Assembly (NCBI GenBank): GCA_040905465.1
Contig: JBBDRK010000017.1
Span: forward strand, 107,729 to 171,728
Length of the DNA: 64,000 nt
Origin: Trueperaceae bacterium
GTDB taxonomy: Bacteria; Deinococcota; Deinococci; Deinococcales; Trueperaceae
Reading direction: 5' to 3'
Shown: piece by piece, positions 49,178-58,473 of the stretch
Numbering within the stretch: the stretch's first letter is position 1
How the letters are laid out: each line of letters opens with the position of its first letter
The notes under the pieces: generated by a model
Told to the model about the DNA's origin: nothing
The model's input: the letters and a program-made list of their open reading frames with translations, nothing else
Databases searched by the model: none
Translations under genes and position numbers: made by a program

Positions 49178-50164
49178 ATGCGTCCAAAAGTATTCCTTAC
49201 GCGCGCGTTGCCGCCAGCACCGATGGCCCGTTTGCACGACGAGACGGAGCTTACGGTCAACTCCGACGACCGCGTTCTGAGCAGGGCGGAACTGCTGGAG
49301 GGCGTACGCGGCAAGGACGGTCTTCTCTGCCTCCTCACCGACACCGTCGACGCCGAGATATTGGACGCCGCGCCAGAGCTGCGGATCGTCTCGAACTACG
49401 CCGTGGGCTTCAACAACATCGACGTTCCTGCAGCCACCGAGCGCGGCGTCGCCGTCACCAACACTCCAGACGTTCTGACCGACACCACGGCCGACATGGC
49501 ATTCGCGCTCCTCCTGGCGGCGAGCAGGCGGGTTGTCGACGGGCACGACCTGGTGCGGTCGGGTGAGTGGCAGGGCTGGGGACCGCTCCAGCTCCTGGGC
49601 GGCGAGGTAACCGGGGCGACGCTTGGCCTCGTCGGGCTCGGCCGCATCGGCCGGGCGATGGTCCCGCGCGCCAAGGGTTTCGGCATGGAGGTCGTTTACT
49701 GGAACCGCACGCGACTGGCCTCTGAGGAGGAGGCCGAGCTGGGAATCGAGTACGCATCCTTCGGGGAGGTGCTCCAGCGCTCGCGCTTCGTCTCGGTGCA
49801 TGTTGCCGCCACGCCGGAAACGCGTCACATGGTCGACGCCCGCGCCCTGCGCCTCCTCGGCTCCGAAGGCTATCTGATCAATACCGCCCGAGGAGAGGTG
49901 GTGGACGAACTGGCGCTGGTAGAGGCCTTGCGGGGCGGCGTGATCGCCGGTGCCGGCCTGGACGTCTATGAGCACGAGCCGAGCCTTACGGCGGGTCTGG
50001 CGGAATCTCCCAACGTGGTCCTGGCGCCGCATCTCGGTAGCGCGACGCATGCGACCCGTAGCGCCATGGGTAACCTGGCCGTCGAAAACCTGCTGGCGGT
50101 GCTGCGCCGAGAACGCCCGCCCAATCTCGTCAACCCCGACGTCCTGCGGAATAGGCAAGGCTGA
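49178..50164 (+). CDS. D-2-hydroxyacid dehydrogenase (glyoxylate reductase/D-glycerate dehydrogenase)
   Basis: NYAVGFNNID, TNTPDVLT, GLGRIG, NTARG, LDVYEHEP, PHLGSAT. Confidence 0.94.
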   Translation: MRPKVFLTRALPPAPMARLHDETELTVNSDDRVLSRAELLEGVRGKDGLLCLLTDTVDAEILDAAPELRIVSNYAVGFNNIDVPAATERGVAVTNTPDVLTDTTADMAFALLLAASRRVVDGHDLVRSGEWQGWGPLQLLGGEVTGATLGLVGLGRIGRAMVPRAKGFGMEVVYWNRTRLASEEEAELGIEYASFGEVLQRSRFVSVHVAATPETRHMVDARALRLLGSEGYLINTARGEVVDELALVEALRGGVIAGAGLDVYEHEPSLTAGLAESPNVVLAPHLGSATHATRSAMGNLAVENLLAVLRRERPPNLVNPDVLRNRQG

Positions 50165-50338
50165 TTCGCGGCTGGAGATGCTCGGCCGCCACTTCCGGGG
50201 CCGACTCCGACCGGGTAAACGGTCCGCCGCCCGCGGCGACTCGAGCGGTGGTATCGTCGCGCCCCGACCCTTTAACGCGGAGAGTCTCCAACTCCTCGGT
50301 GCTGAGAGCCTCCGAGCTGTCGAGACCGGATCGATTCT

Positions 50339-53311
50339 CTAGGCGTCCACCTCCACCGTCTTGCCCTCCATGTGGGTGAACACCAGCAGTGGGACGTCGT
50401 GCAACTCCTGTCGGGCTGTTGCCTGGCCCAGGCGGTTCGGCCCCGAAAACCGAACGACGGTAAGCCGATTGAGGCCGAAGACCGGATATGCGTAAAGCGT
50501 CTCGATCCTCCCGGGAGGTGCCGCCAGAGTCGCCTCTACGTTCAACGACCGGGAAAACTCCCTGCGATAACTCGCCGATCGCCGGGCCGCGTGTGTCATC
50601 TGCTCGGTCAGGCTACGCGACTGCGTCACGCTGTGAGTGGCGCTCGCGCCCACCTCGAACCCGAGCTGCACCACCTTGTCGATGCCTAACTTGAACTTCT
50701 CCTCCACCTTGACGGTATCGGTCCGGGAGGACCCGACCGTTAGGCTCTTGCTTCCTGAGATCGTCACTTCTCCGGTTCGCTCGTCGGCTTCCGAGGTGCT
50801 GGCGCTGAAGGCGACCTTGATTGGCGAGGTGTTGCTTCGAGAGAATTCGTGCCCGTAGATCGAGTGCCAGTACAAGATGTGTCGCGGATCGTTGAAGCGT
50901 ACCTGCCGCTCGAACCGCCGGGTGGAGCTATAAAGCATCTCGAGGGGATGCACGAGGTAAAAGGCCAGCGTTCGACGCGTGAAGTGATAGCGCCTGCTGC
51001 CTCCGATGCCCTGACGCCAGTGGAACTCCACCTCGAGCCGGGCCAGGGGGTTGTCGGGATCCGTCTGGTAGGCGCGTTCGAGGGTCTGCCGCTTCAGCTT
51101 CAACGACAAGTCCCGGTGCTCGCCCGCGCGAAGCGGATCACTGGACCAACGCAGGTACTCACCCTGCTGATTGTCGAGGGGCACCGTCACGAATCTCCGT
51201 TGCGGGCCACTTCCGACAGCGCTGCTGAACCGTAGTTTCAGCCAGGTGGCGTCGAACCTCGTTTGCGAGTTGTTGCTGATTCGCAGCGGGAAAACGGCTT
51301 CCGTTCCCTCCGGTGCGCCAGTCACCAGGTAGTAGAGGTGCGGCCGGTTGTCGCTGCCCGGCACCAGAGTGAGGTCGCGCCACTCCAGCGTCGCCGCTCC
51401 GTTGATCGTCGGAAGCTGCAGTCTCGTCTGCTGCTCGGGGTAGCCCGAACTCTCGACGACGGTCTCTTCGTTGATGGAATCCATCTCTCCTCCGGTTGGG
51501 TAGTCAGCTGTCGGGTGATAGTTGCCGGTTGCCAGGTAGCGCCGCGTTGCGTTGATTGCCGCGGCGGCGTCGATGCAGCCCGCTCCGTAACGGAATCCGT
51601 GTAACGGCGTTGCGCCCTCGGGAAGCTGCGCCGTTCGCAGCAGAAGATCGCGAACGGTCTCCGCCGGCAGGCGCCTCTCGCCGGCGAGCTCCATGATCAG
51701 CGCGGCAACGCCGCAGACGTGCGGTGATGCCATGCTGGTTCCGCTCTTGATTGTCACGCCGCCGATGGAACGGCGGCCGAGAAGATCGATCACCGTCGAG
51801 CGTGCCGCTCTTATCCGCGCGCCCGGCGCCACGCACAGCGGCACCTGGCGGCCGTCCCGAGTCGGCCCGGAACTGCTGAACTCGGCCAGCGGGAACTGCG
51901 GCCGGTTCGGGTCGTACGCACCCACGGCGATCGTGTGGCGCCCACTGCAGATCGTGCCCAGCGTGGTGAGCGGGTCGGCGTCATCGGGATGAAATCGGGA
52001 TTGACTGTTCGTCGCATCTCGTTCGATGAACGCGTGGAAGTTGCCGTTGCGGACCGAACCCGAACGAAGGTTGACGGTCCAGGTGCCGGGCGGCGCCGCT
52101 GGCCACAGGAAGATGTCGATCTGATTGTCCTCGTTGTTCGGATCGTCCTGCCTGTTGTAGACCGACGCGAGAACAATGCCTCGGTCGCGAACGATTTCGG
52201 TGGCACCGACCGGCACTGTGGCGAGTGTCCGGCCGCCCGGGTCTATCAGCTCGACGGTGATCTCGTCGCTGCCCGGGTACCAGACTTCCAGTTCAGACAC
52301 CTCCGCTGTGCGAGCGGGGACCTCCCAACGAAGTCGTGCAGACCCGCCGTCGGTGAGTCGGCCGCTGGCGTGCAATCGTTCTCCGAAGTAATTACCGGTG
52401 CTCATGCACACGACGGTTCCGGGGCGCTCTTCGAGTATTGCGTCGAGGCCGCGTTCCACCAGCGAGGTCCCGTCTTTCGGCCCTCCGGTGCTTCCCAAGC
52501 TGCAATTGATCACAACCGGTCTGCCTTCGGCGCGTTGGAGGATGTAGTCGACAGCCTCGAGCAGGCGGACGGAATCGCCGAGGGTGTCCTCGGGGCCTAT
52601 GTCGCGTCCCTTGAGGTGAACGAATATCAGCTCCGCCTCGGGCGCCACGCCTGCCACTCCGCCCGAGCCCCGTCCGTTTCCTGCCGCAATCGACATGACG
52701 TGAGTGCCGTGGGTGCCGAAGGCCAGGCGATCTATCCCGGCAGGATCGTATCCCAGGTCGCTGTACGGGTCAGCCTGCGCCGCCGCTTCGCTCAACCGCT
52801 CTCGGCCGAACTCGCGCCCGTAGTCGTAGGGTCGTGGGCTGTTCGGATGAACGCCTCCTCGCTGGTCCCACAGGTACAGCAGGCGGCTCGATCCATCGTC
52901 TCGCAGGAAGTCGGGGTGGGCGAAGTCGCAGCCCCAGTCGATGATTCCGACTATCACGCCCCGGCCCGTCAAGGCGGTCTGGGCGGCAGCCGCAACTGTA
53001 TTCGGATCGGCCCTGATCGCCGGGATCGACACGTCCAGGTTGGGCGCGGCGACCTCGCGACTTGCTTTCAGCGAGGCGATGTTGGAGTGTTCGTGAAGCT
53101 CGACGATGCGGTCGAGTGGCAGCCGACCGGTCACTATCGGCCCGAGCCGGCTCACCACTCGCAGGTGGGGAATGTCGGCCTTGGGGTCGCGAAGCCGCAC
53201 GACCACCGCAACCTCCTCGACTTCCGCTCCCTCCTCGAACGCGCCCAACGGGTCGCCGGTTGCGCGTAGCAGTAGCTCCTTCAGCGCCGGGTCGAACTGG
53301 AGATCATCCAC
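50339..53311 (-). CDS. CspA-like S8 serine peptidase fused to a C-terminal Ig-like plus putative beta pore-forming module
   Basis: Triad IIDWG / HGTHV / GTSMAS; propeptide, jelly-roll insert, no signal peptide; AGGAGG SD; 381-aa extension with long Ser/Thr-rich beta strands. Confidence 0.88.
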   Translation of the reverse strand: MDDLQFDPALKELLLRATGDPLGAFEEGAEVEEVAVVVRLRDPKADIPHLRVVSRLGPIVTGRLPLDRIVELHEHSNIASLKASREVAAPNLDVSIPAIRADPNTVAAAAQTALTGRGVIVGIIDWGCDFAHPDFLRDDGSSRLLYLWDQRGGVHPNSPRPYDYGREFGRERLSEAAAQADPYSDLGYDPAGIDRLAFGTHGTHVMSIAAGNGRGSGGVAGVAPEAELIFVHLKGRDIGPEDTLGDSVRLLEAVDYILQRAEGRPVVINCSLGSTGGPKDGTSLVERGLDAILEERPGTVVCMSTGNYFGERLHASGRLTDGGSARLRWEVPARTAEVSELEVWYPGSDEITVELIDPGGRTLATVPVGATEIVRDRGIVLASVYNRQDDPNNEDNQIDIFLWPAAPPGTWTVNLRSGSVRNGNFHAFIERDATNSQSRFHPDDADPLTTLGTICSGRHTIAVGAYDPNRPQFPLAEFSSSGPTRDGRQVPLCVAPGARIRAARSTVIDLLGRRSIGGVTIKSGTSMASPHVCGVAALIMELAGERRLPAETVRDLLLRTAQLPEGATPLHGFRYGAGCIDAAAAINATRRYLATGNYHPTADYPTGGEMDSINEETVVESSGYPEQQTRLQLPTINGAATLEWRDLTLVPGSDNRPHLYYLVTGAPEGTEAVFPLRISNNSQTRFDATWLKLRFSSAVGSGPQRRFVTVPLDNQQGEYLRWSSDPLRAGEHRDLSLKLKRQTLERAYQTDPDNPLARLEVEFHWRQGIGGSRRYHFTRRTLAFYLVHPLEMLYSSTRRFERQVRFNDPRHILYWHSIYGHEFSRSNTSPIKVAFSASTSEADERTGEVTISGSKSLTVGSSRTDTVKVEEKFKLGIDKVVQLGFEVGASATHSVTQSRSLTEQMTHAARRSASYRREFSRSLNVEATLAAPPGRIETLYAYPVFGLNRLTVVRFSGPNRLGQATARQELHDVPLLVFTHMEGKTVEVDA

Positions 53312-53353
53312 CGGCTCGACCTCCTGGCGGTCCTAGTGCCGCAGTCCCTCGGT

Positions 53354-53385
53354 CCCGCGCCCGGAAACCGGGTTCCGGACGCGGG
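53354..53385 (-). terminator. Intra-operon stem-loop before the S8 gene
   Basis: 13-bp stem (one G-U pair on the minus-strand RNA): CCCGCGTCCGGAA/TTCCGGGCGCGGG. Confidence 0.55.
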
Positions 53386-53393
53386 GTGAAAAT

Positions 53394-53804
53394 TCAGGTG
53401 GATTCAACCGCAATGCTTTCGCCGGTCGTGCTGCGTGTATCCGTCGCCGGGATCGTATCCTGTGGCGCAGGCCCCGTCACCACGCCGACGGCCGAGTTCA
53501 GTACCTGGCGCAGAGAGGGGTTGCGCTCGAGCGCCTGGCGCAACACTGGAGCGCCTGCGATGTCGCTGTCTCGAATTGCGATCCTCGAAACTTTGGCCCT
53601 GGCGATGAGCTGTGCAGTCTCGCGGATTGCCGCCTCCTCCGCTCGCTCGGCACGCCGAACCTCCATGTCTGCGCTGACGGCAGTCAGGGCCTGTCTCTGC
53701 GACTCGTCTCCGACCGGCATCATGCCGAACGCCATCGCCTGGGAGAGCCGCTTCCGGCGCGACTTCTTGCTGTTGAACAGAAGCATGAGTGGTACGAGTT
53801 GCAC
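53394..53804 (-). CDS. Hypothetical protein (S8 operon)
   Basis: AAGGAG SD before GTG, 11 nt after the upstream stop; helical. Confidence 0.75.
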   Translation of the reverse strand: MQLVPLMLLFNSKKSRRKRLSQAMAFGMMPVGDESQRQALTAVSADMEVRRAERAEEAAIRETAQLIARAKVSRIAIRDSDIAGAPVLRQALERNPSLRQVLNSAVGVVTGPAPQDTIPATDTRSTTGESIAVEST

Positions 53805-53815
53805 GATTGTCTCCT

Positions 53816-54694
53816 TTAGTCGGCGAGGGCCATGAGCATGAAAGGAAGCATGTTGTCTCCTCCGCCTTGCTGGCCCATGAGGAGCGGCAGGAGCATCATC
53901 ATGCTGTTGTCGTCGCTGTCGACCGATTGCGAACTGCTGACCTCGACCAGATCACCGGTCGTGGCCCCGGTCGAATTGAGCACGACACCGCTGTGGGTGT
54001 GGGAGGTGATGTCGTCGCGGATGCGCTGCATCTGCATCATGCCGAGCATCAGGTTCATCATCGCCTGCGACGACTGCTCCTTCTTGAATGCGGCTAGTTC
54101 GCGCTTCTGCTGCCCCAGCACCTTGCGGGTGCTCAACCTGAATTTCGCCAGGTTGTCCTTGTTGCTCGCGGCCAAGACCGCAGTCTGGGTGATCCGCTGA
54201 CGCTCCTTGTGCAGGTCCGACTGAGTCCGGTTCAACCCGGTAGTGAGGTTGCCGATCTGAGTCTGCAGCTTCCTGGTCGTCGCGAGATACTGGGTGAGTG
54301 TGGGCACCGCGGCCGGAAGCTGCATCGAGGCGCTGCCACGGGGCGTGTTCAGCCGGGCAGTTCGGACCCCGCCGCCCCCACTCGCTGCCGGGGCGGGCCT
54401 ACGAAACTGGCGAGGCCTGCTGGGAGCCTTGAAGAGATTGGAGACGCTGCGGATCCCATTGATGGCGGTCGTGGCGGCTCCGCTTATCAGCGGCGCGGCC
54501 AGGCCGGCCAGGAACTCGGCTTCCGTCGATTCATCGTCGTAGTCGTAATCGTCTTCTGCCGCGAACGTCTCGTCGTCGTCATCGTCATAATCGTATTCCG
54601 CGAGTACGGCGTTCTCGAATGCCTCGTCGTCATAGCCGGATTCTGTGAAGGGAGCGTTCTCCGCGAACGCCTGAGTCGAGGTGCTACCGTTCAT
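53816..54694 (-). CDS. Hypothetical protein: acidic leader, amphipathic helix, coiled coil, HxH motif, Met-rich tail
   Basis: AAGGAGG SD; overlaps the upstream gene by 11 nt. Confidence 0.8.
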   Translation of the reverse strand: MNGSTSTQAFAENAPFTESGYDDEAFENAVLAEYDYDDDDDETFAAEDDYDYDDESTEAEFLAGLAAPLISGAATTAINGIRSVSNLFKAPSRPRQFRRPAPAASGGGGVRTARLNTPRGSASMQLPAAVPTLTQYLATTRKLQTQIGNLTTGLNRTQSDLHKERQRITQTAVLAASNKDNLAKFRLSTRKVLGQQKRELAAFKKEQSSQAMMNLMLGMMQMQRIRDDITSHTHSGVVLNSTGATTGDLVEVSSSQSVDSDDNSMMMLLPLLMGQQGGGDNMLPFMLMALAD

Positions 54695-55154
54695 CGAAAT
54701 CCTCCTTCGGGCCGTTGATTCGGCCGGTCGTTCTCTTCTGTAGCGGGACGACGTCCAGCCCTACGCTGTGCAGGGCGGGAAGGACCCAGGCGAGAAGCTC
54801 ATTGCGATCCGCCGTACGCGAGCCGGGACCGCCGGCGCCTGCGCATTGCGGGCAGGATCGTTCCCTGCCCCAGCAGAGCTCGCAAGAACCGAAGACTTCG
54901 GCGATGTATGAGATGGCTCCGGCGGCCTCCTCCAGTTGTTGACGGAGGATCCGCCCGGTGCGGCGACTCCGGTTCAGCTTCGCCTGGAAGTCCTCTGCCG
55001 AATCCTGACCTCCTCCCTGGTTTCGTTGTTGAAGCAGAGTGGCGAGCATGGCGGCTTTCGGATTGCCCTGGAACAGCGCTTCCATGTCGGCTGCAGGAGA
55101 CTGCCCTTCGCCTCCCATCTGTCGGAGCATCTGACTCATCAAGCTAGGGTCCAC
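54684..55154 (-). CDS. Hypothetical protein with CxxC-x6-CxxCxGxG putative zinc finger
   Basis: GGAGG SD; CELCWGRERSCPQCAGAGG; Met-rich N-terminus and coiled coil. Confidence 0.8.
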   Translation of the reverse strand: MDPSLMSQMLRQMGGEGQSPAADMEALFQGNPKAAMLATLLQQRNQGGGQDSAEDFQAKLNRSRRTGRILRQQLEEAAGAISYIAEVFGSCELCWGRERSCPQCAGAGGPGSRTADRNELLAWVLPALHSVGLDVVPLQKRTTGRINGPKEDFDER

Positions 55155-55186
55155 ATTCCCCTCCGTTCCCGTGCAGGTTCCTGCAG

Positions 55187-56119
55187 TTACGGCGTGTCTG
55201 GTTGCTGGTCCTCGATCGGCCAGTCCTCATCGATCCATGTTTCGGGATCCCCCTCCTCTCCGGCGGGCCACCTCTCCGGCGTGAAGTCGCTGGACAAGCT
55301 TTCGCGGTCTTCGAAGCGGTTCTCGGATTGCAACGACTCCCAGGTGTCGCCGGAACCGTCCGGCGTAAACGCCTCCTGCCGGGCGAAAGCCAGCGCCTCG
55401 AACATTTGCTCGCCCTCTGCGAGACCGCCTGCAAGGCTCTGTTCGCGTGCGGCGCCGGGCTGTCCGGAGGTGACCGCCGAGAAGGCTTTGAGGCCGACCG
55501 GTACCGCCTTCAGCAGCAGGGGGAGGAGTTGCGCGATAATGGGCAGGACGACCGGCAGCAACTGGAGCAGGATAGGGACCACGGCTCCGACGGCCTCGGC
55601 ATCGTGCTCGAGATCGGCTTCGATCGCCTCGAGTCGCTCGAGCGCTTCGCGCTCTGCGCTCTGCAAGGGCCGCTGCGCGAACGCTCCGATCAGTTGGGGA
55701 ACGAGAGCAACGAGCTGCGGCAACAAGGCGGCGAGATGATGTACGAGTTCCGGAGGCACGCCGGGTGCAGCCGTTGGATGGGCTGCATTGGCGGCCGGAG
55801 ACGGTGGCTGACGGCTTGCCGCCGGAGGCCGGGAGGGCGCTGTCGGAGGGATAGGTGAAGCCTGCGGGGCGGGGCGAGGCGAGGGCTTGCGGCCTTGTTG
55901 CTGTGCGGTGTTCACCGCACCCATCGTCCCGCCGATCAAGCCTCCCGCGAGCGCGCCCCACGGGCCTGCGCCCAACCCGGCGGCCGCGCCGCTGGCCGCA
56001 CCGCCGCCGATCCCCTTGATCCAGTCGAGCACATCCTCGGCCGACTCCGCGGGGCCTTGCGCCGCCTCGCTGAGCCAGTCGAGCGCTTCGGAAGTCGATT
56101 CGCCGTTCAGTTGGTACAT
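55187..56119 (-). CDS. Hypothetical protein with glycine zipper and hydrophobic/amphipathic helices separated by acidic spacers
   Basis: GGGAASGAAAGLGAGPWGALAGGLIGG; VVPILLQLLPVVLPIIAQLLPLLLK; TGATG coupling. Confidence 0.8.
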   Translation of the reverse strand: MYQLNGESTSEALDWLSEAAQGPAESAEDVLDWIKGIGGGAASGAAAGLGAGPWGALAGGLIGGTMGAVNTAQQQGRKPSPRPAPQASPIPPTAPSRPPAASRQPPSPAANAAHPTAAPGVPPELVHHLAALLPQLVALVPQLIGAFAQRPLQSAEREALERLEAIEADLEHDAEAVGAVVPILLQLLPVVLPIIAQLLPLLLKAVPVGLKAFSAVTSGQPGAAREQSLAGGLAEGEQMFEALAFARQEAFTPDGSGDTWESLQSENRFEDRESLSSDFTPERWPAGEEGDPETWIDEDWPIEDQQPDTP

Positions 56120-56322
56120 CAGCTACCCCCGGTGGTTTCGTGAGCCTCTAGGAATTCCTCGATAAATGGACGAATGGCGTCGAGTGTCAGGAAGTGAAAC
56201 CGTTCGTTGTCCGGCACGTGCACGATGTGGCCTCGCCATTCGCCGGCGCCACCAGGCGAAGACAACTCCTCGAACCAAATCTTGATAACGAAGGAATGAA
56301 CGGCCAGTTCCGCCTGCCTCAT
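56119..56322 (-). CDS. Small hypothetical protein (SFxxxIW...WRGxxxH type)
   Basis: GGAAGG SD; stop overlaps the next ATG; compact beta-rich motif HSFVIKIW..EWRGHIVHV. Confidence 0.7.
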   Translation of the reverse strand: MRQAELAVHSFVIKIWFEELSSPGGAGEWRGHIVHVPDNERFHFLTLDAIRPFIEEFLEAHETTGGS

Positions 56323-56395
56323 CAGGCCTTCCTTCCGTTGCCCGTCGCACGCTCTGGCTGCTGCCGAAGCTCATGCAGACAGTGTCGGCTCCCGG

Positions 56396-56434
56396 CGTCT
56401 CCTGCCTGTCCAATGGCCGTCTCAGGGACGTCTC
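56396..56434 (-). promoter_or_regulatory. Four direct repeats at 11-bp period (candidate SARP/BTAD binding array)
   Basis: Plus strand: CGTCTC 56396, TGTCCA 56407, CGTCTC 56418, CGTCTC 56429. Confidence 0.7.
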
Positions 56435-56700
56435 GCGTACCGGCCGAAAGTGTGCTAACATCCGCTCCACCTTCAGATAATCCGGCCCGCTCCTCACCTC
56501 CGATGTCTACATGGGCGTCGCCGGCGCCGTGTGCTTTGAACTGCCGTACAGGGTTGTGCAGAGGCGTCAGAGGTATCCGGGGCGAGGGAAGGCGCCACGC
56601 CGGCAGAGGTGGAGCCGGGGCAGGTACGCGACTTCAAGATCGACGGGCTCAGGAGTGCGAGGGTTGGGGATCGAATCTCTTCCGGGGAGCGATTGATGCG

Positions 56701-57621
56701 ATGACGGGCACCGTGTTCATACGAGTATTCGGGGAACTTCGAGTGGAGGTGAACGGTGTCCTTGCACCTCCCTTGGAGAGCCGCAAAGCGGAGGAACTCC
56801 TCTGTTATCTGGTTCTCAACGATGACGGCCCCATGCGGCGGGAGCAGTTGATGAGCGTGTTGTGGCCCGAGGAAACTACAGCCAAGGCGCAAAAGCATCT
56901 GAGGCAAGCCCTTTGGCGGCTACAGCGGGCTTTCGGCCTGGCGGAGGAGGGAGCGAGACTCCTGCGCCTCGACGGCCCACGCCTGGAGTTGAGCCGAGAG
57001 GTGTCCCTGTCCACGGACGTCGGTATGGTGCTCGACAGCTTCGAGGCCACGCTCGGCGTTCACGGGGAAGACCTGACCGAGACGCAGGCCCAGTCTTTGG
57101 AGAGTGCAGCCCGCCTTTACGAAGGTGGCCTGCTCGCGGGTTGTTATAGCGATTGGTGCTTGCTGGAGCGCGAACGGCTGGAGAACACAACTCTAATAAT
57201 TCTCGACAAGCTGATGGCGTACTGCGAGGCGACCCACCGGCACGAGGCCGGGCTGGTACACGGCATGCGACTTCTCGAGCTGGACAACGCTCGAGAGGCC
57301 ACTCACCGCCGGATAATGCGAATCTACGCCGAACTCGGCGACAGGACCGGAGCGATGCGACAGTATCGGCGCTGCACCAACGCCCTGCTGACGGAGCTGG
57401 GTGTCGAGCCGTCCGAAGAAACCCGCAACCTCTTCGCGGCTATCCGCGGCGAAGACAGGCACGACGAGGATTGGGGACGTATCCGGCCCGGCGATGCCCT
57501 GGAGCGAACGCGGACATTCCTGGAGTCGCTGAGGCAAAAGGTCGACGAGGGTATAGAGGCGATCTTCCGCGATCTGGATGATGTTAAGACAGCAGAGCCG
57601 GCGTCCCGCCCGCGCAAGTGA
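56701..57621 (+). CDS. SARP/AfsR family transcriptional activator (wHTH + BTAD)
   Basis: IRVFGEL, KAEELLCYL, REQL...LWPE, LRQALWRL, LYEGGLL, E..HRRIMR.Y...GDR..A..QY, ELGVEPS. Confidence 0.92.
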   Translation: MTGTVFIRVFGELRVEVNGVLAPPLESRKAEELLCYLVLNDDGPMRREQLMSVLWPEETTAKAQKHLRQALWRLQRAFGLAEEGARLLRLDGPRLELSREVSLSTDVGMVLDSFEATLGVHGEDLTETQAQSLESAARLYEGGLLAGCYSDWCLLERERLENTTLIILDKLMAYCEATHRHEAGLVHGMRLLELDNAREATHRRIMRIYAELGDRTGAMRQYRRCTNALLTELGVEPSEETRNLFAAIRGEDRHDEDWGRIRPGDALERTRTFLESLRQKVDEGIEAIFRDLDDVKTAEPASRPRK

Positions 57622-57635
57622 TCCTGCCTCTTCGA

Positions 57636-57683
57636 TCAGCGACGGCCCGCGGCGTCCGGCGCGGATGATCGGGCCGTCGCTGA
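57636..57683. terminator. Stem-loop between convergent BTAD and GntR genes
   Basis: TCAGCGACGGCCCG...CGGGCCGTCGCTGA perfect 14-bp arms. Confidence 0.65.
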
Positions 57684-57792
57684 CGGCAAATAGTGACAGC
57701 AGCGGGGCGATGTTTCCGAGCCAGTCACCCGGCGCTTTGGACCTGACTAACCGAGCCGCCTCTTCCGAGCGCCGCTTCCAGGTGGGTCTGGC

Positions 57793-58473
57793 CTAACCCG
57801 TCCTGGTGAAGTACCTGGCGGTATTGAGCTTATGTTCCCGCGCGAACAGTTCGATCTCCAACGGATCCGTTGCGGCGTTGGCAAGCATCTGGACGATTTG
57901 CTCGTGATCGCTCAACGACCCTTGCGCCCTCTGGGGAATCAGATAGAAGGAAGTGGTGCTCAGATAGGAGTCGAGCCGAGACCAGAGAGCCTGGATCGTC
58001 TCGACCAGGCTGGCGTTCCGGCACTGAGCATAGATCAGGAAGTGGAACTCGCGGTTGTGGAGGCTGAACCTGTCCCAGTGCTCTTCAGCCAGCGCCTTTT
58101 TCATCTTGGTATCCAGATTGCGGAGCTGTTTCTCGACGGTAGGGGCGATCGGCAGGGCGAGTCGCGTTGCGTATGCCTCCAGGACGGCCAAAGGTTCCAA
58201 CACGCTGACGATGTCGTCGGAGGTGGTGAGTGCGACGACTGCCCCAACGTGTGGCGTCATTTCAACCAGCTTCTCGGACTGCAGCTTGAACAGCGCCTCG
58301 CGAACGGGCATTCCGCTCGTCCCGATCTCCTGGGCGATCTGGCTCGTCACGATCCGTTGACCAGGGAGAATCTGACGCGAAACGATCTTCTGCTTGAGGA
58401 ACCTGTACGCCATCTCCTGCTTGGTCTGAGATGGCGCCTCGATCGTATTTGAACTCTTGCGCTTCACGCTCAT
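57793..58473 (-). CDS. GntR family (FCD) transcriptional regulator
   Basis: PGQRI...IA..IGTSGMPVREAL, NREFH, DHEQI. Confidence 0.93.
   Translation of the reverse strand: MSVKRKSSNTIEAPSQTKQEMAYRFLKQKIVSRQILPGQRIVTSQIAQEIGTSGMPVREALFKLQSEKLVEMTPHVGAVVALTTSDDIVSVLEPLAVLEAYATRLALPIAPTVEKQLRNLDTKMKKALAEEHWDRFSLHNREFHFLIYAQCRNASLVETIQALWSRLDSYLSTTSFYLIPQRAQGSLSDHEQIVQMLANAATDPLEIELFAREHKLNTARYFTRTG

Follow-up and report, generated by a model that had tools for sequence, protein, structure and literature searches.

What does a 310-residue protein with a glycine-zipper core and strongly acidic ends do in an operon with an S8 serine protease? The question is raised by an open reading frame (ORF) on the minus strand, positions 55187-56119, of a 64,000-nucleotide stretch (the window, which throughout means this whole stretch) from a Trueperaceae bacterium. 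An earlier annotation made from the letters alone, here called the sequence-only reading, took the ORF for a polyprotein-like precursor from which the S8 protease releases several membrane-active peptides. Our analysis points elsewhere. We observed a protein family with a characteristic architecture, a recurring operon, conserved acidic junctions, peptidoglycan-related domains and a sporadic distribution, and the zipper protein is the most variable subunit of this conserved S8 operon. Judged from its sequence, it could be a subunit of a conserved, horizontally scattered, protease-gated module that breaches the cell envelope, for lysis or non-classical export, in a holin/endolysin-like manner. 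We advance this reading tentatively, as a serious possibility and not as the probable answer.

The ORF is present in the window's ORF list. The motifs quoted in the sequence-only reading were all found as stated: AESAEDVLDWIKGIGGGAASGAAAGLGAGPWGALAGGLIGG, LLPQLVALVPQL, EHDAEAVGAVVPILLQLLPVVLPIIAQLLPLLLKAVPVGLKAF and the acidic tail can be read letter for letter in the 310-residue frame, and STEAEFLAGL in a 292-residue ORF of the same operon. A profile of the N-terminal zipper module, searched against 1.84 billion representatives, identified 349 proteins at E ≤ 1e-3, of which 58 reach E ≤ 1e-10; a word-indexed search with the 310-residue protein returned 6 relatives besides itself. Because of these 58 representative relatives and the conserved gene neighbors, we regard the frame as a real gene. 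The relatives are 171-455 residues long, and nearly all of the strongest profile matches carry the module close to the N-terminus. No family was assigned to the window protein by Pfam, PADLOC or NCBIfam above cut-off, and Pfam gave no Gly-zipper_Omp or Gly-zipper_YMGG match to it at E ≤ 0.1. Among 76 scanned relatives, 6 matched Gly-zipper_Omp at E ≤ 1e-3, with only P0038 above the cut-off (25.6 versus 25). A database copy of the protein, P0001, comes from a different contig and has R78 (QQQGRR) in place of the window's K78 (QQQGRK; codon 55886-55888).

An alignment of 55 members defined the family layout: an acidic N-terminal region, the zipper, a basic Pro-rich linker, an LLPxL helix, and either an acidic tail or an amidase. 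The acidic N-region has a median length of 38 residues (17-118) and a median charge of -9 (-25 to -3). It is followed by 39 zipper residues of charge 0, a linker of median charge +4 (-1 to +22), an LLPxL helix of charge about 0, and a tail of median charge -19 (-53 to +7). In the zipper, G52, G55, A56, G59 and G63 are invariant; in the LLPxL helix, L132 and P134 are nearly so. Motifs combining Trp with acidic residues are conserved at both ends of the family. Conservation across the 55 aligned relatives places the acidic ends, the zipper and the LLPxL helix above chance. An AlphaFold2 (AF2) model built from this alignment is all-helical (mean predicted local distance difference test score, pLDDT, 67), with helices at residues 7-20, 24-51 and 53-75, a break at the invariant G52-P53-W54-G55, a disordered linker at 76-122 and further helices thereafter. 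In the window protein, Kyte-Doolittle hydropathy averaged over 19 residues, KD(19), exceeds 1.2 in two segments only, residues 125-149 (maximum 1.85) and 172-219 (maximum 2.45).

In 7 of the 76 scanned relatives (P0002, P0007, P0039, P0053, P0060, P0061 and P0062), a folded Amidase_2 domain of about 130 residues takes the place of the acidic tail at the C-terminus; apart from the Gly-zipper_Omp matches, no domain was recognized in the others. We therefore consider the zipper protein a poor fit to a peptide precursor. Taken together, the proteins appear to form an unnamed family of acidic-capped glycine-zipper membrane-hairpin proteins with a charge-block design, in which a hairpin and an LLPxL helix would be arranged around a basic linker and capped by acidic blocks at both ends. 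A near-copy of the zipper core (AGSLAGPWGALAGAIVGGG) is also present in a phage tape-measure protein (locus L030, 3264-6164), and thus the bare AGPWGAL glycine zipper appears to recur beyond this family as a membrane-active element.

The zipper gene is the second in a run of minus-strand genes that encode, in order, a 67-residue small protein, the zipper protein, a zinc-ribbon protein, the 292-residue protein, a 136-residue small protein and the S8 protease. The 67-residue gene ends in a stop codon that overlaps the zipper ATG (TGATG), and the other gaps range from -11 to +82 nucleotides, so the run is best regarded as a single operon. Further loci were collected through the zipper module, including a metagenome scan with the zipper alignment, or through the zinc ribbon. 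The operon was found in Actinomycetota, Gemmatimonadota, an Anaerolineaceae metagenome-assembled genome (MAG), a Cupriavidus replicon and two metagenome contigs. A zinc-ribbon homolog occurs in 8 of 8 loci, window included. The S8 gene occurs in all 5 loci that reach far enough (the window, L002, L005, L010 and L035), with L003, L004 and L009 ending too early; the association of the 310-residue protein with the protease, on which the sequence-only reading relied, is thereby upheld.

Within the lineages sampled, the operon is rare. Among 364 genomes of the window's phylum, a single one (G000) encodes a member of the 292-residue family, neither of 2 same-genus genomes does, and the operon was found in at least 1 of 401 sampled genomes of the family to which the L002 genome belongs, a minimum set by a stricter first look. 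In the same-genus genome G288, the window flanks match at 76-77% identity on different contigs and the interval at about 50150-57800 is unmatched. This interval comprises the operon and its regulator, contains no further gene within its boundaries, and is absent from both same-genus genomes. These distributions fit an accessory, transferable module. The GC (guanine plus cytosine) content is 0.644-0.651 over 50001-56000, slightly higher than the 0.58-0.62 or so of the flanks. At the island, neither a tRNA nor an integrase nor flanking repeats were seen.

The feature that first drew attention to the protein was its acidic junctions. When the family was anchored on W33, the junction took the form [DE][DE][AEQ]-E-[ND]-[VA]-[LG]-x-W-[LIV]-x-x-I-G-x-G (n = 55). 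Relative to the Trp, which is kept in 52 of 55 sequences, Glu is at position -5 in 44 and at -5 or -6 in all 55, and the dipeptide AE is at -6/-5 in 18. Because AE occurs five times in the 310 residues (positions 24, 27, 155, 174 and 234), it carries little weight by itself. For the 292-residue protein, 7 relatives besides itself were found. In an alignment of 9 sequences that includes the L002 ortholog, E60-F61-L62 is invariant (9/9) and directly follows a variable poly-acidic run; 6 of these 9 close relatives have AEFL. The zipper protein and the 292-residue protein are thus alike in having a strongly acidic N-region (charge -22 over 59 residues in the latter), a conserved boundary and then a Gly/Ala-rich hydrophobic stretch. 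Of the shared xAE site put forward in the sequence-only reading, the acidic-to-hydrophobic junction survives, and the strict xAE form does not (AE in 18/55, AEFL in 6/9, EFL in 0/4 distant orthologs).

The second hydrophobic cassette of the window protein, behind its EHDAE/AVGAV junction, is limited to 2 of 55 relatives: the window protein itself and P0045, in which an acidic AES lies right ahead of it. Local alignment of this cassette with the LLPxL helix scored 39 (shuffles, 25.7 ± 5.2; 33 of 2000 shuffles reached 39), and it is probably a lineage-specific local expansion of the LLPxL motif. The proposal that several cassettes are released fails at this point, since conservation extends to the zipper and a single LLPxL helix and no further. 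A hydrophobic-Pro-hydrophobic motif, [LIVMF]2-P-[LIVMFQ][LIVMF], is present in three of the seven proteins: the zipper protein has six copies, the Met-rich C-terminus of the 292-residue protein two and the N-terminus of the 136-residue protein one. The motif may represent an interaction or membrane element that these three have in common; the remaining four proteins lack it.

The S8 protease provided the main clue to a possible mechanism. Its closest relatives in PDB are CspC and CspB (E values of 6.5e-33 to 1.7e-26 over residues 112-591). Scores against the NCBIfam CspBA and CspC models are 146.9 and 132.9, far from the respective cut-offs of 1250 and 675; by these sequence comparisons, the enzyme is a relative of Csp proteases and not an equivalog. 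It also matches the PADLOC subtilase model (76 bits). The catalytic motifs are D125 (DWG), H201/H204 (HGTHV at 201) and S526 (GTSMA at 524), and the triad residues are invariant in 4 orthologs. A signal-peptide-like hydrophobic N-terminus was present in 0 of 5 S8 orthologs by a crude hydropathy test that is not a signal-peptide predictor (maximum KD(12) in the first 50 residues ≤ 1.39). Prediction of a complex between S8 residues 1-600 and zipper residues 1-85 scored 0.00, which is evidence neither way.

The C-terminal region of the protease varies among loci. In the window, this domain (391 residues) has only two relatives: P0017 (671 residues, with a C-terminal hydrophobic tail) and P0018 (1607 residues), which contains Amidase_3, VanY and Peptidase_C70 domains and, below cut-off, Peptidase_M74 and PG_binding_1. 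An AF2 model from a 3-row alignment had a mean pLDDT of 51.7, with an Ig-like sandwich in the first half and a Ser/Thr-rich beta-hairpin in the second, where pLDDT was below 50. Foldseek and a wide VIA-align search with this model gave generic Ig-like beta-sandwich matches only (template modeling score about 0.2; Z ≤ 10), and no aerolysin-like pore former was listed by either. The S8 proteins of L002 and L010 have in common a long C-terminal region unlike that of the window, with a stretch (E..ES......G.S.GP.QFN) resembling, by eye, the motifs of lytic transglycosylases; neither Pfam nor PDB sequence searches with these C-termini gave a match above threshold. An M15/LAS peptidase assignment of the L002 C-terminus, also made by eye, was rejected (Peptidase_M15_4, 16.7 bits versus 25; no PDB sequence match).

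In other loci, operon proteins carry domains related to peptidoglycan. The L005 protease ends in an OmpA domain (31.2 bits; cut-off 27.2). In Cupriavidus (L035), the protease has two PG_binding_1 domains (67.7 bits), the small protein has a PASTA domain (37 bits; cut-off 23.2) and an upstream 808-residue protein has PG_binding_1. Along with the amidase fusions of the zipper family and the C-terminal domain that the window protease has in common with the multi-hydrolase P0018, these domains form a peptidoglycan theme across the operon.

In our tentative view, these observations are best accommodated by a model in which proteolysis unmasks a membrane-active protein. In the cytoplasm, the acidic caps would hold the hairpin soluble and inactive, perhaps with the CxxCxG zinc-ribbon protein as a holdase. 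The Csp-like S8 protease would then cut off the acidic N-region at or near the E-[ND]-[VA]-[LG]-x-W boundary, and would act likewise at the EFL boundary of the 292-residue protein. The freed cationic and hydrophobic cores would enter and permeabilize the membrane. Finally, wall-directed parts that lack signals, such as the zipper-fused amidase and the peptidoglycan-binding C-termini of the protease, would reach the peptidoglycan. We arrived at this model from the conserved design of the zipper protein, with its fixed boundary, from the descent of the S8 protease from enzymes that remove propeptides, from the lack of signal peptides on the wall-directed domains and from the presence of a CxxCxG zinc ribbon. 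The outcome would be suicide (defense), controlled lysis or export.

Several points weigh against protease-gated unmasking. Cleavage, its site, membrane activity and the choice between self-lysis and export are all parts that we infer. The zipper is weakly hydrophobic (family median of the maximum KD(19), 1.26) and may not span a membrane. EFL is lost in the four more distant orthologs of the 292-residue protein, which read DDEGVLD (L010), SEAVSPF (L005), VIEAIIR (L003) and EGAELDE (Cupriavidus) at the junction. The prodomain end of a Csp-type enzyme would mirror the specificity of the protease, and the consensus of 4 S8 sequences has no acidic site near residue 95, where the offset of the CspB-chain match places that end. 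PHROGs gave only weak function-unknown matches for the operon proteins, with no holin, spanin or endolysin, and Pfam revealed no recognizable peptidoglycan hydrolase among the operon proteins of the window itself. Three further loci (L006-L008) and 13 viral ones have the zipper core and no other operon gene, and it is the viral ones that speak against the model. Finally, the usual location of OmpA, PG_binding_1 and PASTA domains is outside the cytoplasm, which makes an export route of unknown kind, without lysis, equally possible.

A more specific version can be formulated, which we consider rather unlikely as stated. The Csp-like cytoplasmic protease would sense wall damage or wall fragments through OmpA, PG_binding_1 and the PASTA domain of its partner, strip the acidic pro-regions from the zipper and Met-rich proteins, and so cause membrane perforation in abortive infection, controlled lysis or export. 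This would be an undescribed kind of programmed rupture of the envelope, a helical, non-gasdermin counterpart of protease-gated pore formers.

The operon recurs rarely and patchily in at least four phyla, bringing together new hairpin proteins, domains that bind the wall and a protease of the germination type. Should this protease prove to unmask membrane-active cores, the operon would represent a new route of regulated lysis or signal-less export in non-sporulating bacteria, and the glycine-zipper and Met-rich families would gain a function. Failing that, a testable substrate hypothesis for a Csp-like protease outside spores would still follow from the family as defined and from its conserved boundaries. 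No description of an S8/glycine-zipper operon was found in the open-access full text searched.

The main alternative, doubtful as we find it, is an assembly that is never cut. The zipper, 292-residue and small proteins would be structural subunits of a membrane complex, a non-classical exporter or anchor, with the S8 protease as its cargo or as an effector acting on wall-associated proteins, and the acidic ends would dock partners or balance charge. It would account for the peptidoglycan-binding domains on the protease itself and for the Trp-acidic motifs at both ends of the zipper family, which resemble interaction motifs; moreover, the junction lies inside a predicted helix (residues 24-51), and a helix is a poor protease site. 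However, Csp-type S8 enzymes are maturases of a partner protein, and the acidic N-region varies in both length and sequence yet ends at a fixed boundary, as expected of a removable pro-region. The ORF list and Pfam also revealed no ATPase or other energy-coupling component in the operon.

An improbable alternative is a secreted bacteriolysin similar to polymorphic toxins, in which the zipper module would serve in trafficking or anchoring and a variable C-terminal payload would be freed by the protease during export. The constant N-terminal module with variable C-termini agrees with it, including the amidase fusions and another C-terminal domain that, by eye, is common to L005 and Cupriavidus; in addition, the S8-PTS report connects S8 peptidases with polymorphic toxins and proposes that they free the toxin domain (PMC9424270). 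Yet in most family members, the C-terminus is an acidic low-complexity tail without any domain. No immunity-like gene pair was seen, Pfam identified no BetaH domain or known secretion-system gene, and the N-terminus of the window protease does not resemble the signal peptide that defines the S8-PTS peptidase (PMC9424270).

The polyprotein precursor of the sequence-only reading, a bacteriocin- or RiPP-like protein (ribosomally synthesized and post-translationally modified peptide) cut at a shared xAE site, is very improbable: the three AE-to-hydrophobic junctions in the window's two proteins, the S8 gene and SARP-type regulator (a class typical of secondary-metabolite clusters) and the AES of P0045 are set against a second cassette in 2/55 relatives, AE at 18/55 first junctions and at five places in one protein, folded amidase fusions in 7/76 relatives, the absence of bacteriocin or microcin Pfam matches and of exporter or immunity genes, and a score of 26.6 bits (cut-off 421) for the PatA-type cyanobactin protease model TIGR03895. 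A multi-core RiPP precursor with an S8 maturase of the PatE/PatA-PatG type was also rejected, as homologs do not conserve repeated cassettes with a common flanking sequence and the protease is not of the PatA/PatG subfamily. Precursors of class II bacteriocins and microcins are short (roughly less than 120 residues) and have a leader ending in a double-glycine-type site. The resemblance claimed in the sequence-only reading does not extend to these properties: the protein has 310 residues, matches no GG-leader family, and has no curated bacteriocin or microcin match at E ≤ 0.1 in Pfam or NCBIfam. No ABC/C39 exporter or immunity gene was found in the cluster, for which Pfam reports S8 and BTAD/winged helix-turn-helix (wHTH) domains only.

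One of the closest parallels among known systems is the Csp/pro-SleC pathway of clostridial spores, in which proteases of the Csp family are maturases that activate a cortex hydrolase by removing its N-terminal propeptide. Likewise, the window protease is closest to CspC and CspB and lacks a signal-peptide-like N-terminus, and its zipper partners are extended at the N-terminus, 7 of 76 being fused to a peptidoglycan amidase. On the other hand, the window protease falls far below the Csp model cut-offs and has extra C-terminal domains, no SleC homolog was seen, and its partner is instead an acidic-capped hairpin protein with a glycine zipper. To our knowledge, Nocardioides, Gemmatimonadaceae and Cupriavidus are not known as endospore formers.

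Phage holin-endolysin systems and signal-anchor-release (SAR) endolysins offer a second comparison. SAR endolysins have Gly/Ala-rich, weakly hydrophobic N-terminal membrane domains, and some zipper proteins have a similar segment N-terminal to an amidase; signal-less peptidoglycan-directed domains also adjoin small hydrophobic proteins in the operon. In contrast to phage systems, the operon has no PHROGs holin, endolysin or spanin match and no phage context, the hydrophobic segment of the zipper lies behind a long acidic N-extension, and the unit includes a protease, a zinc-ribbon protein and a SARP regulator.

Bacterial and fungal gasdermins are pore formers that stay inactive until cut by a neighboring protease. 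Their proteolytic control has been reported (10.1101/2021.06.07.447441; PMC8851545). The window operon would follow a similar logic, with a putatively membrane-active protein encoded beside a protease. The zipper protein differs in being predicted all-helical, without the gasdermin beta-core, and its putative inhibitory parts are acidic low-complexity ends. None of the 7 operon proteins matched the PADLOC gasdermin models.

In the S8-PTS (PMC9424270), the genes of polymorphic toxins are accompanied by that of an S8 peptidase, which is proposed to free the toxin domain; the peptidase is a single-domain protein with a signal peptide, and the systems have BetaH N-domains, toxin-immunity pairs and basic cleavage patches. 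The window operon likewise links an S8 protease to constant N-domain proteins with variable C-termini. Unlike the peptidase of that description (PMC9424270), the window protease is multi-domain, Csp-like and signal-less, and the operon has no BetaH domain or immunity pair and acidic junctions. Other glycine-zipper proteins (Gly-zipper_Omp, YMGG and C19orf12-like) also have small-xxx-small repeats in a helical hairpin, but the flanking W-helix, the GPWG turn, the linker, the LLPxL helix and the acidic caps are features of the zipper family alone. Glycine-zipper bacteriocins include CdzC/D.

The coordinates of the zipper protein, its neighbors and the other loci carrying the operon are given in Table 1.

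Table 1. Features of the operon region in the window, and gene content of related loci
Feature	Position	Strand	Description
Glycine-zipper protein, 310 residues	55187..56119	-	58 relatives; AF2 all-helical
Acidic N-region, residues 1-32	56024..56119	-	Charge -8; two LDW[LI] helices; ends in ESAEDVLD
Glycine-zipper helical hairpin, residues 33-71	55907..56023	-	Predicted; turn G52-P53-W54-G55
Basic Pro-rich linker, residues 72-122	55754..55906	-	Charge +5; predicted disordered
LLPxL hydrophobic helix, residues 123-148	55676..55753	-	Conserved; KD(19) up to 1.85
Second Pro/Leu cassette, residues 174-212	55484..55600	-	Very hydrophobic; KD(19) up to 2.45
Acidic C-terminal tail, residues 213-310	55190..55483	-	Charge -19; contains Trp
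67-residue small protein	56119..56322	-	No Pfam, NCBIfam, PADLOC or PHROGs family; homolog in L003; similar 70-residue ORF beside BTAD gene in L010
Zinc-ribbon protein, 156 residues	54684..55154	-	C-x2-C-x-G ... C-x2-C-x-G-x-G-x-P-G
Poly-acidic/coiled-coil/Met-rich protein, 292 residues	53816..54694	-	E60-F61-L62 at 54509-54517
136-residue small protein	53394..53804	-	N-terminal hydrophobic LVPLM stretch, then basic stretch
Csp-like S8 serine protease, 990 residues	50339..53311	-	Downstream; Peptidase_S8 120 bits
S8 C-terminal domain, residues 600-990	50342..51514	-	Ig-like beta-sandwich plus beta-rich part; fold unknown
SARP-type regulator (wHTH + BTAD)	56701..57621	+	Divergent; ORF listed from 56194; likely start M170
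L002, Nocardioides flavus			Zipper, zinc ribbon, 292-like, small protein, 1468-residue S8 ORF (about 1401 residues from aligned start), BTAD nearby
L003, Anaerolineaceae MAG			BTAD, 67-residue homolog, zipper-amidase, zinc ribbon, start of 292-like; contig ends
L004, Gemmatimonadaceae MAG			Zipper, zinc ribbon, start of 292-like; contig ends
L005, Gemmatimonadaceae MAG			Zipper, zinc ribbon, 292-like, S8
L009, metagenome contig			Zipper, zinc ribbon, 292-like; contig ends
L010, metagenome contig			Zipper, zinc ribbon, 292-like, small protein, S8, BTAD
L035, Cupriavidus oxalaticus 1.19-Mb replicon			Zipper-like protein, zinc ribbon, 292-like, small protein, S8

For five of the seven proteins encoded by the operon and its regulator gene, searches of Pfam, NCBIfam, PADLOC and PHROGs yielded no above-threshold family. 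In the zinc-ribbon protein, the 4 Cys residues are invariant in 5 sequences, and the CxxCxG ribbon is what we take to be a DnaJ-like motif; its look-alikes in the ESM Atlas are unnamed clusters only (score 0.94). For the 292-residue protein, the ESM Atlas gave no useful look-alike (0.86). The EFL, TPxG, HxH and MMxLP motifs of its family are invariant or nearly so in the 9 aligned sequences, and the family had no match among viral contigs, nor the window protein among plasmids. Positional counterparts of the 136-residue protein were recognized by eye in L002, L010 and L035.

The divergent regulator matches BTAD with 72 bits in Pfam, and Trans_reg_C below cut-off (16.9 bits). BTAD homologs adjoin the operon in L002, L003 and L010. 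No SARP-type heptad repeats stood out in the intergenic region 56323-56700. In three loci (window 56119-56322, minus strand; L003 628-885; L010 8166-8381, minus strand), the operon and its BTAD/SARP regulator are found together with a protein of 67-85 residues that has the core FVIKIW...W.G.I.HVP; this protein may be a partner of the regulator rather than of the membrane proteins.

The Cupriavidus locus (NZ_CP038636.1, 610955-629380) is a divergent copy of the operon. It has an AraC/receiver regulator instead of a SARP and a truncated zipper-like paralog upstream. PLSDB annotates no features in this stretch. Its neighbors include a group II intron reverse transcriptase and a SIR2_2 protein, which are no more than a hint of a defense or mobile neighborhood.

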